From assembly GCA_964016885.1 (NCBI GenBank), contig OZ024757.1, forward strand, positions 30,318,001 through 30,382,000: a stretch of DNA of 64,000 nucleotides, read 5' to 3'. Within the stretch, counting starts at the first letter, position 1, and each line of letters starts with the position of its first letter. Position numbers and translations under genes: made by a program. A model generated the notes under the pieces. It saw only the letters and a list, made by a program, of their open reading frames with translations, did no database searches and had not been told where the DNA came from. The DNA is from Eledone cirrhosa (taxonomy: Eukaryota). Shown here one piece after another: positions 32,546-40,670 of the stretch.

Positions 32546-32610
32546 TATTTCATTATACATATTTCAGGGATACCAAATTAAATTATGGTATGCCTTCATC
32601 AGACAAAATA
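32546..32610 (-). ncRNA. Minimal type-I hammerhead ribozyme (family A)
   Basis: TATTTTGT-CTGATGA-AGGCATACCA..TGGTATCCCT-GAA-ATATGTAT-A-ATGAAATA. Confidence 0.8.
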
Positions 32611-33081
32611 CAATATATAACAGTTTTACAAATAAGCTTTGACGTACCCTATTAAAATGCAACCATTGTTTTTGGAAGTCATCCGGATAGTGATTTGTTT
32701 ATATTACTTTAATAAGTCATAGTGTTAAGGACAATTAGTAAAAGACGGAGAGAAAGAAAAAGACGGAGAGAAAGAAAAAACGTGGAGAAGTATCGGAGAA
32801 AGAGAGATGCATGGAGAAGAAAAGAACAGAAAGAGATAAGTAAAGACAGGAGGAAAGGAAGAAGAAAAAAGGAAGAAATAAGAAAAACAGAGGAAAGCAA
32901 CAGAGAGATATTAAGTTAACAGACAGATAGAAAAACTCAAGAGAGAGAAATGTTATATATAGAGAGAGAGGGAGATTATGAAAACTTTACGTCATGTCAT
33001 GTTAAGTTGAGTTAACAATTCATATGAAATGAATAATAAAAATATAAATATTAATATTCATGAATGGGACATATATATATA

Positions 33082-33265
33082 ATTGTTTCTACTTTAGGCA
33101 CAAGGCCAGCAATTACCCAGTGCATTACTGCTACTTTATTTTATCGACCCCGTAAGGATGAAAGGCAAAGTCAACCTCGGCGGGATTTGAACTCAGATCG
33201 TAAAGGGACGTAACTATGCTGGAAAGCATGGCGTCCGACCCTCTACCGATACTGCCAATCCACCA
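33082..33265 (-). mobile_element. tRNA-derived SINE with Nin/Deu-like central domain, multi-copy
   Basis: GTTCAAATCC B-box and GACTTTGCCTTTCATCCTTACGGGGTCGATAAAATAAAGTACC. Copies near 1810, 6625, 8590, 19870, 21460, 23670, 28780, 30570, 37285, 37930, 56345 and 62120. Confidence 0.8.
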
Positions 33266-34430
33266 ATGGGGGACATATATATATAATATGAGAAATTAAA
33301 CATTGTTTAATAATGACTATATGTTTAGTTTAAACCTTGAGATCAATATACCAAAATTTGATATGTATATATATATATATATATGTGCATGTATATATGT
33401 ATGTAAGTATGAGCATGTAAGTATGTGTATGTGAGTATATGTATTTTGTAGAGGTGTGCATATATGTTTGTGTGTGAATGCGTGGGCGAAAGGATACGTA
33501 CACTTGAAAGAAAAATTTAAGTCTGAATGTTAATTAAGTGCAAACACAAAACCAACCATGCATATCTATACTATCTCTAATCCTTCTATAGATTTAGAAA
33601 AATAACCAACGCCAAATAATATATATTCTATAAAAATGTCAAAACAACAGATGGGAATCTAATTACTCACTGCCACCAAAAATTCTCACTGCTATCAAAA
33701 AACCACTCCCTTAACTATTCTTCTAACAACTTCACCCCTCCCTCCTAATATTCTCTATAAAAACCAAACCGGTTCTCAATAAAATTATTCTGATGAAATG
33801 ACAATTGATACACAACCAGATGATTGTTCATATATTGTCAAAGTTGTTTCGTCAATTTCAAATTCCTAAATTTATAAATTTAACTTATAATAAATTGGAG
33901 TGAAAGCATCTAGTGCGTGTGTTTCTTATTGGCAACATGACCCTTCCAAAGTATAACAATATCGGTTTCAACACACGTTTTCAGATAAAGAATCTTGTTA
34001 AACAAATTCAGAAACGAAATATATATATATATTAAACGAAGGAAATGTGGTAAGGAACCAGGTGGACCATAACGCACCAAAGTACTCAATACTTAGGGTA
34101 GTAGAGTGGGTAATAGGAACAAGTAGGACCCCGACGGCTGAGCTCAAGCCGTTTCGACGGCTAATTCTGGACTGAATTAGCCGTCGGTCCAGAATTAGCC
34201 GTCGGGGTCCTACTTGTTCCTATATATATATATATATATATATATATATATATATATATATATATATATATATATATTGTTATACTTTGGGAGGGCCATG
34301 TTGCCAATAAGAAACACACGCACTAGATGCTTTCACTCCAATTTATTATAAATTAAATTATAAATTTAAAAAATTTATAAATTTCTTGTTGGTTGGTTCC
34401 ACAACCGGACGGTTGTTCGTTCATATATTG

Positions 34431-34622
34431 TTCTTTCGTCACACATTCTGTGACCTCTTCAGTGACTGGGAATTCTTTTCCTTGTTTTGTGCCTCTCCTT
34501 TGTTCTGTCCTACGCCATCTTGTTTGGTAGGCGTAGGACAGAACAAAGGAGAGGCACAAAACAAAGAAAAGAATCCCTAGTCACAGAAGAGGTCACAGAA
34601 TGTGTGACGAAAGAATTTTGAC
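34431..34622. ncRNA. Inverted pair of damaged hammerhead motifs (family C)
   Basis: Minus arm GTCA-CTGAAGA-G-GTCACA-GAATG-TGTGAC-GAAA. Plus arm GTCA-CAGAAGA...GAAAGAATTT-TGAC. Third copy at 62905-62941. Confidence 0.6.
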
Positions 34623-35400
34623 AATATATATATATATATATATATATATATATATATATATAGAGAGAGAGAGACGGAGAGATTGCGTTCACGTTGTTTA
34701 ATTTTTATCTGTATCGAAATTTTAGTTTCATTCCATTAGAATACGCAAATCGGAAACTTTAATTTTGTATTATATAATCTAAATAGGCTTACAAATTTTT
34801 CCTTCCCAGTTATTACAATAATCAGACTTAAAAATGATTTCTATTTTAGGCACAATGCCAATAATTTGAGGGGATGGATAAAGCGATTAAATCGAAGCTA
34901 AAACTTCACTGGTACTTTATTTTATCGGTCCCGAAAAGTATGATTTCCAATCTAGAGGCAATAGAAACTACACTTTGAGGCGAGGGGTAAGTCGATTAAA
35001 TCGACCCCTCTCCCTCCAGTACTGGACTGGTTCTTTATTTTATCGACTTCGGAAGGATGAAAGGCAAAGTCGAACTCGGCGGGATTTTAAAACAGAATCG
35101 TAAAGAATGATATATATATATATATATATATATATATATATATATATATATATATATATATATAGAGAGAGAGAGAGAGAGAGAGAGAGAGAGAGAGAGA
35201 GAGAGAGAGATAGATAGATAGATAGAGAAAGGGATATAGATAGAGAGAGAGGGAGATAAAGAGAGGGGAACGAAATATTGTATTAAAAAACATAACTGTA
35301 AAAAAAAAGGAAATCTTAATAATATTTAATTTATTATCTAATTATTATTTATTTATTTATTATATAATTTATTAAAAGCTCCAATTTGTTGTAGCTAAAA

Positions 35401-35407
35401 CGGAAGT
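35401..35407 (+). promoter_or_regulatory. ETS-type CGGAAGT motif, candidate promoter element
   Basis: CGGAAGT at the end of an AT-rich tract just upstream of the candidate first exon. Confidence 0.3.
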
Positions 35408-35445
35408 TGCATTTCTTAATACGTTTACCTGCGAAAGAAGCAACG

Positions 35446-35553
35446 ATGCCTTCAGGCAGATGTGATGTTATTTATGGGGCTCTTACCGTCTACAAAACAT
35501 TACTGGATATACCAAACAATTCTTTTATTAAAGTAAACCAGAATGATATCCAG
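35446..35553 (+). CDS. Putative first exon of an unidentified plus-strand gene
   Basis: Unique sequence, ACG-ATG start, MPSGRCDVIYGALTVYKTLLDIPNNSFIKVNQNDIQ, CAG|GTaac donor, CGGAAGT motif 45 bp upstream. Confidence 0.4.
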
Positions 35554-38536: not shown

Positions 38537-38607
38537 TGATGTACATGGGAGTCGAACCCACATCTTTGGTTATCCAGACCACTGTGCTACCATTACACCA
38601 ACACATC
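38537..38607 (-). tRNA. tRNA-like cloverleaf (GGA anticodon, short variable arm) inside a repeat, probably not a functional tRNA
   Basis: GATGTGT/GTACATC acceptor, GTGT-AATGGTA-GCAC D arm, TGGT-CTGGATA-ACCA anticodon arm, GTGGG-TTCGACT-CCCAT T arm. Confidence 0.55.
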
Positions 38608-39026
38608 ACCCATCTCTTTCCATTCAAATTAGAAGCTACATTCTTAGCGAGTATAAATGACAAGTATGTTTATACTCGCTAAGAATGTAGCTTCTAATTT
38701 ATCTGAGGGTTTTAAACCCCATTAACAGACTAAAATTTCTTTAGTCAAAAAAATACGGTGAAAGCTATTCTATTTTCTAATATATATATATATATTATAT
38801 ATAAGGGATAACAAAATACCGTTATAGGTAATGCAGTTAGAGGTTGTGAATACTTCTTATTATGGATAGTTTTAGCCTACGGCGTTGTTTGACCCAACAG
38901 GAGGTTTATGTAGATGAGGAGTTTATGATTTCACTTGTATTCCTATGTAAGTTTATCTTGGAGTAATAAAATTGAAAAAGTGAAGAATAACATGGTCAAC
39001 AGTACAAAAAAGGGGATTTATTTACA

Positions 39027-39132
39027 GTCTAACAATTGTTTCTCTGATTAAGTTGTCTAAAAATTGCTGAACACTAGAAGCAGTGCCACTCAATTTCAAA
39101 TATGATGCTAGCTCGATTAGATCATCAGAAAC
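39027..39132 (-). ncRNA. Hammerhead candidate with long stem II insert
   Basis: GTTT-CTGATGA-TCT..(~75 nt)..AGA-GAA-ACAATTGT-T-AGAC, palindromic stem III. Confidence 0.5.
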
Positions 39133-39327
39133 GTATTTGAAATTGAGTGGCACTGTTTCTAGTGTTCAGCAATTTTTAGACAACTTAATCAGAGAAACAA
39201 TTGTTAGACTGTAAATAAATCCCCTTTTTTGTACTGTTGACCATGTTATTCTTCCCTTTTTCAATTATATATATATATATATATAATGATATTAAATAAA
39301 TGGAAATTATATTTTTAAAACCATATT

Positions 39328-39393
39328 TATTTTATTATATATATTTCAAGGGGAACCAAGACAACATTGGTACGCTTTCATCAGATAAAATAC
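39328..39393 (-). ncRNA. Minimal type-I hammerhead ribozyme (family A)
   Basis: Inverted copy of 39671-39736. Confidence 0.8.
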
Positions 39394-39670
39394 GAAGTTT
39401 GTTTTATAAATAGAGACATACCCATGAAAATCATACCGGTTGGAAATTCACTGGATAGTGGAAATATATTAGGGATTATTCAAACTTATGTGTGAATATG
39501 TAAATAATTGAAAAACAACTGTTTATTTAAATGACACTGGAGAAAAACAGAGAGAAAAAATAAAGATAGAAAAAATTACGAGAGAGTTAGAGAGAAGAGA
39601 TAGACAAGAGAAGATGAATATAACGTTAATTTGGGGGAAATATATTCTAAGTATAAATCTAATATTATGT

Positions 39671-39736
39671 GTATTTTATCTGATGAAAGCGTACCAATGT
39701 TGTCTTGGTTACCCTTGAAATATATATAATAAAATA
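39671..39736 (+). ncRNA. Minimal type-I hammerhead ribozyme (family A)
   Basis: TATTTTAT-CTGATGA-AAGCGTACCAA..TTGGTTACCCTT-GAA-ATATATAT-A-ATAAAATA, with a perfect 8-bp stem I. Confidence 0.82.
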
Positions 39737-40600
39737 AATATGGTTTTATAAATATAGTTTCCATTTATTTAATATCATTGAATATTTACTCCAGTATACT
39801 GTCGAGTGCTCTAAATCAGTTATAAAAATTTATGTTTGTTGGACTTCCAACAAATTAAATAACACTTCTACTTATATATATATAAATATATATAATTAGA
39901 AATATAAGCTTTCACCGTATTTTTGACTAAATAAATTTTTAGCCTGATAGTGGGGTTTAGAACCCTCAGAGAAATGGAAAAAGATGAGTATTGACGTACA
40001 TGTACATCAATACTCATCTTTTTCCATTTCTCTGAGGGTTCTAAACCCCACTATCAGGCTAAAAATTTCTATTACTCACTACATTTCCGGAGTGTATTTG
40101 TTTGTGTATGATGTGTTATGGATGTATAAACAATTATGTTGATTAGTTCATTATTATTTTATTGATTGCGAAATGAAAGTTGAAGATCAGCATCAGCGTG
40201 ATTTCAAACGTTTTTTATCCAACACAAGGCCGGATATTGACTTGCTGAGGCCTTAAGCTCCATGAAATTTAACGGGTGATGTGTTGTTTCCTTGAGCAAG
40301 ACACTTTATTTCACATTGCTCTAGTTTACTCAGCTGTAGAAATGAGATGATAGGGACTGGTGTCCATATCATTCCACTGCAAAGTGGTCATGGAGGTGCC
40401 ACCTCAAAAAAGCACCCAGCACTCACTGTAAATGAGGTTGGTGTTAGGAAGGGCATCCAGCTGTAGAAATCAAGCCAGAATCAGTTCCCGTCCCACCCTT
40501 GCAAGCAGGGAAAAAGCGGACGTAAAATGAAATGATGTTGATGACGATGATATATATTATTCAAAATATTAATAAATGAAGACATTCACATAATCAAAAT

Positions 40601-40670
40601 ATGTTTTATTATATATATTTCGAAGATACTGTGCTGTTTTTTCAGTACGTCCTCGTCAGATAAAATACAT
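40601..40670 (-). ncRNA. Minimal type-I hammerhead ribozyme (family A variant)
   Basis: TTTTAT-CTGACGA-GGACGTACTG..CAGTATCTTC-GAA-ATATATAT-A-ATAAAA. Confidence 0.8.

Follow-up and report, generated by a model that had tools for sequence, protein, structure and literature searches.

Penelope-like elements (PLEs) of the Hydra clade, which carry hammerhead ribozymes and insert at (TA)n targets, have been published and include the octopus family Hydra-1_Obim from Octopus bimaculoides (Craig et al., 2021; PMC8557442). The motifs listed for this clade in the same paper are RW[K/R], DKT, a CxCX5C linker, the lack of CCHH, and CxxC and CxH around the residues E and N. PLE hammerheads have been described as type I ribozymes with an enlarged helix II and a palindromic helix III, which are mostly solitary or occur as opposite-strand pairs 100–700 bp apart and were ascribed to truncated PLEs (Cervera and De la Pena, 2014; PMC4209133), and it has been argued that they cleave as dimers via the palindrome (PMC4209133; PMC6765202). 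For an anole PLE, Poseidon of Anolis carolinensis, experiments in vitro showed cutting of both DNA strands at AT-rich sites, initiation of reverse transcription at two internal positions of the RNA that match the genomic tail, and use of uncleaved RNA as the main template, the hammerhead requiring the protein to cut (Frangieh et al., 2024; PMC11167929). The role of PLE hammerheads is treated as an open question (PMC8557442; PMC11167929). In this study, four hammerhead motifs (H1–H4) located in a stretch of 64,000 nt from Eledone cirrhosa (GenBank assembly GCA_964016885.1, contig OZ024757.1, positions 30,318,001 to 30,382,000 of the forward strand; hereafter the window) were analyzed together with related loci elsewhere in the 3.0-Gb assembly, over which the genome-wide counts were taken.

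The four motifs are very probably the pseudo-long terminal repeat (pLTR) hammerheads of 5'-truncated PLE copies from three Hydra-clade families, which are new families within an already known kind of element. Like the Hydra clade including Hydra-1_Obim, the parent elements have one open reading frame (ORF) for a reverse transcriptase (RT) with a C-terminal GIY-YIG nuclease, (TA)n targets, a hammerhead near the 3' end and inverted 5'-truncated copies. Unlike Hydra-1_Obim, whose published hammerhead has other stems, they form separate families; their unit measures 4.2 kb, with a 3' untranslated region (3'UTR) of 1.0–1.8 kb, compared with under 3 kb for Hydra PLEs, and their tail is about 90 nt long versus the 30–40 bp stated for PLEs generally (PMC8557442). 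The motifs resemble the PLE hammerheads of 2014 in type, in helices II and III and in their solitary or paired arrangement, whereas here helix I is longer (6–8 bp), helix II contains an internal C.C mismatch and helix III consists of an 8-nt A/U palindrome (PMC4209133). With Poseidon the elements share two adjacent internal RT starts that leave a genomic tail, AT-rich targets and a hammerhead in the pLTR near the ORF start; however, the clade is another one, the Poseidon cut site lies 26 nt inside the ORF rather than 186–189 nt before it, and the present elements are known from sequence (PMC11167929). Craig et al. (2021) was the sole relevant paper found on octopus or cephalopod hammerheads, and no description of these families or of their copy number was found in the literature, where cephalopod supplements and transposable-element (TE) libraries may contain them. 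Hammerheads are unmentioned in the main text of two cephalopod repeat papers (PMC13282606; PMC8967140); one of them is a 2026 repeat annotation of O. vulgaris, in whose main text the words 'ribozyme' and 'Hydra' do not occur either. The supplements or TE libraries of these works may hold the families.

Hammerhead motifs and truncated copies in the window

Four complete motifs had been reported in an earlier note on this stretch, and all four were confirmed in place, both in the sequence and by a scan with a structural descriptor that required the core, 4 bp or more in stem I, and stems II and III. The scan returned these four and one more match (7060, minus strand), compared with a mean of 0.04 and a maximum of 1 in 200 block shuffles of the window. 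The motifs are as follows.

32546..32610, minus strand: H1, hammerhead of family 1; C3 at 32602, H17=A at 32554, predicted cut after 32554
39328..39392, minus strand: H2, hammerhead of family 2; C3 at 39384, H17=A at 39336, predicted cut after 39336
39672..39736, plus strand: H3, hammerhead of family 2; C3 at 39680, H17=A at 39728, predicted cut after 39728
40604..40665, minus strand: H4, hammerhead of family 3; C3 at 40659, H17=A at 40610, predicted cut after 40610

Each contains CUGANGA, GAAA and NUH together with three helices, and is open at helix I, as in type I hammerheads. Stem I measures 8 bp in H1, H2 and H3 and 6 bp in H4, stem II is long (9–10 bp), and stem III is an 8-nt A/U palindrome, ATATGTAT in H1 and ATATATAT in H2–H4, in agreement with the short palindromic helix III that had been claimed. 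The description 'minimal type-I' is correct as to the type; with a stem II of 9–10 bp and a helix III present, the motifs are not minimal in the strict sense of Cervera, in which the minimal hammerhead ribozyme (min-HHR) has no helix III. Stem II had also been said to stay paired, and a long stem II is indeed found throughout, but a C.C mismatch occupies its fourth position in 4/4 motifs and the H2 copy, in which it reads TTGGTTCCCCTT, has a private change that weakens it. H2 and H3, identical at 112 of 118 positions, are divergent, separated by about 280 nt and bounded by two TA runs, and so are one insertion of one family. The four motifs thus represent three families and three insertions and cannot be counted as four independent cases.

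An Rfam scan, which had been proposed as a check, reported no hammerhead family either for the whole window at E<=1 or for 39300–40700 at E<=10; this miss lowers the case for membership of the Rfam family, not the case that the motifs work like hammerheads. Unconstrained folding of the monomers gave z-scores of -1.7 to +0.6, which carry no information either way. The bare pattern CTGANGA..GAAA has 20 matches in the window, among which those at 8135, 30060, 43156, 50549 (inside a LINE-like ORF, LINE being long interspersed nuclear element) and 53215 were rejected as hammerheads because they are without stems I and III, and those at 7740, 12707, 26709, 39128 and 57073 were not accepted by the descriptor scan, the only screen applied to them.

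The motifs and two damaged relatives, the last two lines below being judged from sequence, lie in the following copies.

32409..33360, minus strand: family 1 copy (H1), 5'-truncated, with a 3'UTR piece, the pLTR and a long tail (+145), ending in (TA)n
39285..39650, minus strand: family 2 copy (H2), 5'-truncated, with a CT-rich 3'UTR piece, the pLTR and a short end (about +50), then (TA)n
39670..39872, plus strand: inverted partner of the H2 copy (H3), with the pLTR and a long tail (+144), then (TA)n
40550..40721, minus strand: family 3 copy (H4), 5'-truncated, with a short end and then a short TA run; 97.7% to locus L138
40723..40765, plus strand: remnant of the H4 copy's inverted partner, without the hammerhead part; 97.7% to L138, in reverse orientation
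38290..38385, plus strand: family-2-like copy that has lost CUGAUGA and half of stem II by deletion
15205–15376, plus strand: family-2-like copy cut off inside stem II, with a long tail and a TA flank

The family 1 copy is broken by another repeat at about 33079–33264 and matches the element at locus L145, described below, at 95.9% over 32409–33083 and at 98.9% over 33270–33360. The H2 copy matches L143 at 85% over 39268–39650, and the H2 and H3 copies together form one divergent inverted insertion. The window copies are likely inert where they are now located, and the four that carry H1–H4 are in themselves ordinary transposon debris.

Parent elements and their protein

Longer copies at other genomic loci (numbered L) were walked upstream through an AT-rich 3'UTR until the ORF was reached. 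The hammerheads of all three families were found 1.0–1.8 kb downstream of an ORF encoding RT and GIY-YIG domains: 1.8 kb after it for the H1 hammerhead of family 1 in L133, about 1.0–1.3 kb after it for the H2/H3-type hammerhead of family 2 in many of the 30 loci L051–L080 as well as in L142 and L143, and 1.3–1.6 kb after Hydra ORF fragments for the H4 hammerhead of family 3 in L136 and L138. Locus L145 is a complete pLTR–ORF–pLTR unit, in which an open ORF of 735 amino acids is flanked by identical H1 hammerheads at a distance of 4,234 nt from each other and the pLTRs are identical to each other at 595 of 602 positions. Among 61 long genomic matches to this protein, 40 are without an internal stop (the best candidates were scored), and the predicted cut site lies 186–189 nt before the ATG in 10/12 full-length loci. 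This fixed spacing and the matching paired pLTRs argue against a chance nesting of hammerhead and ORF. The relation to Penelope elements that the earlier note had proposed is borne out by these longer copies, and the genome search that it had suggested, for Penelope ORFs with the same termini, succeeded down to a complete unit.

The further proposal in that note, that the motifs belong to separate non-coding retroelements mobilized in trans, was not supported by the same analysis. Non-LTR retrozymes, small non-coding tandem repeats with circular RNAs of 170–400 nt that are mobilized in trans, share type-I hammerheads, high copy number and low GC with the present elements (Cervera and De la Pena, 2020; PMC7229834); their palindromic helix III is shared as well, the window is without such an ORF, and in a 2026 preprint animal retrozymes are traced back to PLE pLTRs (10.64898/2026.07.22.740005). 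However, tandem repeats of 150–450 nt like those of non-LTR retrozymes (PMC7229834) are lacking here, and the sequence runs on into a coding element. No head-to-tail arrays occur among 189 loci, in which same-strand neighbours number just five: two cases represent full or nearly full units (of 4,234 and 3,489 nt), the neighbours 364 and 745 nt apart belong to different subfamilies and have TA runs between them, and those 1,458 nt apart come from different families. Moreover, the element copies have common fixed 3' ends and ragged 5' ends, the latter continuing into the 3'UTR and ORF, the parent element has coding capacity, and in longer copies the hammerheads are attached to an ORF of their own. 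A retrozyme origin is already largely refuted by these observations, and we regard it as highly improbable.

The parent protein has 92 relatives at 30–41% identity, nearly all of them unnamed. A protein model built from 71 sequences, with a predicted local distance difference test score (pLDDT) of 87.9, has telomerase RTs as its best fold matches (Foldseek, 3du5, E 1.6e-9); the structural match to telomerase RT (VIA) has a Z of 16.6 and a root-mean-square deviation (rmsd) of 5.6 over 341 aligned residues. The C-terminal 137 residues (pLDDT 84.8) best match the GIY-YIG nuclease I-TevI (Z 9.4, rmsd 2.2, 86 aligned), followed by T4 EndoII (Z 7.7) and UvrC (Z 7.0), and the nuclease residues Y, Y-G, R, H, E and N are invariant in 50 sequences. 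A YRDD motif is present in the ORF. The first Hydra motif reads RWR, with K changed to R, in 11/12 loci; DKT is found in 12/12, the CxCX5C linker in 11/12 with CCHH absent, a single cysteine between the GIY-like and YIG-like motifs in 11/12, and CxxC and CxH around E and N in 12/12. On these motifs, the predicted fold and the (TA)n targets, the parent elements are assigned to the Hydra clade; membership of Naiad, Neptune, Nematis or Penelope/Poseidon was discarded because the nuclease is C-terminal and has no CCHH. By eye, the ORF seems similar to that of Hydra-1_Obim.

Copy number, conservation and copying of the elements

First-look candidates numbered 3,326 for family 2, 2,727 for family 1 and 941 for family 3, with 40 scored per family. 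A single tight pattern consisting of the common stem I, core and stem III occurs at 53,861 places (27,047 + 26,814), with 0 for the reversed control, and this number leaves out other hammerhead families, so that the genome total exceeds it. The repeats were also seen in four contig sets of unrecorded kind, all from a single study, which bear on their presence and not on expression. For Hydra-1_Obim, 4 copies with a common end site were noted (PMC8557442), and counts of 4,000–9,000 were termed remarkable in the 2014 survey (PMC4209133); the present count is above these, and it is large but no record, as 126,247 retrozyme hammerheads have been given for the axolotl (PMC7229834). The families that the pattern leaves out include the following.

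L094:2979–3050, L088:2717–2789, L161:1843–1914, L115:2626–2674 and L161:2738–2802: further hammerhead families with other palindromic stems III (ATGCGCAT, ACTAGT, ACCAGTGGT)

Covariation was examined in 19 variants chosen to span families. Changes on both sides were found in 14 of 20 stem pairs, a score reached in 0/500 shuffles and far above slid controls, the shuffle having no control for relatedness, which inflates such scores; the palindrome of stem III is retained when it changes, as from ATATATAT to ATGCGCAT. Since this covariation is found between families, it points to selection on active master elements. The view that the co-varying stems reflect selection on structure is upheld in this form, but not on the strength of four independent motifs, H2 and H3 being one insertion.

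Selection might also act on individual copies if the host retained them as functional ribozymes, for example for the processing of host transcripts. The CUGANGA core is intact in 699/741 family 2 copies (94.3%), compared with 7,194/8,128 (88.5%) for a flank 6-mer, an unmatched control that includes older families. In a matched sample of 30 loci, with the flank restricted to +9..+50, core and flank change at similar rates, the core differing at 5/329 positions and the flank at 26/1,205 (p=0.66; small sample). Furthermore, broken copies are present in the window (38290–38385 and 15205–15376), and copies within families are 93–99% alike, a youth that would account for the intact cores. Retention by the host is accordingly judged very unlikely; the structure is conserved between active lineages, and protection of single copies was not detected in this small sample.

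In the window and in the majority of the 30 loci, the copies pass into TA repeats at their 3' ends, and they stop about 55 or 144 nt beyond the predicted cleavage site; a long end was judged by a 142-nt yardstick, and the window copies reach +144 and +145. Because the copies extend beyond the cut site, the copied RNA would have been uncleaved or re-ligated at its 3' ribozyme. Among the 189 loci there are 49 same-family opposite-strand neighbours, 48 of them divergent (the loci overlap and some pairs are counted twice), and 43 divergent pairs comprise 27 with one long and one short end, four with two long ends, one with two short ends and 11 unclassified. The clear rule that inverted pairs combine a long with a short end carries the two-start-site model over from the in vitro Poseidon system to a second clade. 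Many inverted pairs are merely 50–160 nt apart, which together with the very high copy number and the known existence of non-autonomous PLEs (MRC1; PMC8557442) could suggest that short copies, especially compact inverted pairs, are non-autonomous subfamilies re-transcribed and re-mobilized by the Hydra protein. However, the arm junctions vary from copy to copy, as expected of independent truncations and not of one amplified short master, and such subfamilies appear unlikely.

For truncated copies of coding Hydra elements, the following course may be proposed. Insertion at (TA)n would likely be carried out by the element's own GIY-YIG nuclease and telomerase-like RT; by analogy with published PLE work, the nuclease would nick both strands of AT-rich DNA, and each nick would prime reverse transcription at one of two internal RNA sites, approximately 55 or 144 nt downstream of the cut site, on a template intact across its 3' ribozyme. 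If synthesis ended early, the product would be a short copy, or a divergent pair in which a long end is combined with a short one. The ribozyme would likely act in full-length tandem transcripts, cutting as a dimer, via pairing of the 8-nt A/U palindrome between two copies, or with the help of protein, and 5' cleavage would set the 5' end of the RNA 186–189 nt ahead of the start codon. By analogy with the described systems, the motifs would likely self-cleave only in full-length element RNA, and cleavage there would explain why the fold is conserved between families. The genome offers young families for the study of these steps, with dozens of stop-free ORFs, a fixed distance from ribozyme to start codon and a tail of about 90 nt.

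A more speculative possibility, to which we give a low probability, is that Hydra-clade elements are still active and replicate via a 4.2-kb RNA circle, excised by two hammerheads and ligated. Reverse transcription would then begin within the circle, 55 or 144 nt beyond the junction, and proceed across it, which would explain both the uncut hammerhead near the 3' end of every copy and the more than 600 nt of its own 3'UTR that the full-length copy has before the ORF. These data are likewise explained by template jumping from one uncut linear transcript to another. If the circle were real, this genome, in which dozens of open ORFs and approximately 54,000 motifs are present, would provide a strong natural test for the circular-template model put forward in 2014.

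Several points weigh against the assignment of H1–H4 to truncated Hydra-clade PLEs with working hammerheads. A complete pLTR–ORF–pLTR unit was examined for family 1 alone. The RT and GIY-YIG domains of the parent ORF were not recognized by Pfam at its cut-offs, a PDB sequence search with the parent protein gave no match, and Foldseek gave none for the nuclease domain at E<=0.001 (E>0.1); the domains were called from predicted folds and motifs. For none of the four monomers is the hammerhead fold the predicted minimum-energy one, above which it lies by 3–8 kcal/mol, and the self-duplex of the palindrome amounts to merely -2.2 to -3.2 kcal/mol, from which it follows that activity could be very low. 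The better retention of the core than of the flank 6-mer would fit some selection on copies. In addition, the 3' ends of the 30 loci, which were sampled in genome order, were tallied as 13 long, 15 short at about +55 and two other, a count that is partly biased because two of the three queries contained the tail.

Other features of the window

As a list of the hammerheads in the window, the four motifs stand but are not complete, since further copies of other families had been missed. A complete hammerhead of another family, with a 9-bp stem I and the stem III ACCTCTGGT, is located at 30317–30390 (plus strand); L085 and L133 contain relatives. At 7024–7069 and, degraded, at 16070–16125 (both minus strand) there are compact hammerheads in which stem II is short and the palindrome is ACGT, with 10–11 look-alikes among the fetched loci. 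A near-perfect fold-back at 32242–32350 is an inverted pair of another hammerhead family, cut off at the core (32289, plus strand), with an intact relative in L153, and the fold-back at 34400–34620 contains two degraded hammerheads (34462, minus strand, and about 34586, plus strand) of a further family with 15 look-alikes in the fetched loci.

Near-perfect hairpins, several of them between TA runs, are found at 24664–24758, 27249–27366, 34098–34281, 39000–39270 and 39919–40082. They have weak Rfam scores as microRNA precursors and are likely inverted retroelement ends, which, if transcribed, could give abundant double-stranded RNA. The last of these hairpins is related to an element at 38448–38790 with inverted ends and TA flanks, within which a tRNA-like sequence (52.8 bits) lies at 38537–38607 (minus strand); this element is possibly a tRNA-headed element moved by PLE machinery.

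An exon of a P5A-ATPase gene (PF23143, E 5e-26) is located at 25731–26156 (minus strand), with the hammerhead cluster 6–15 kb upstream of it. The frames at 17607–17903 and 16231–16527 (minus strand) had no Pfam match and are probably further exons of the same gene. Fragments of the C-terminal part of LINE-like RTs, unrelated to the hammerheads, are present on the plus strand at 46363–47178, which has a weak RVT_1 match, at 48001–48628 and at 50483–51037.

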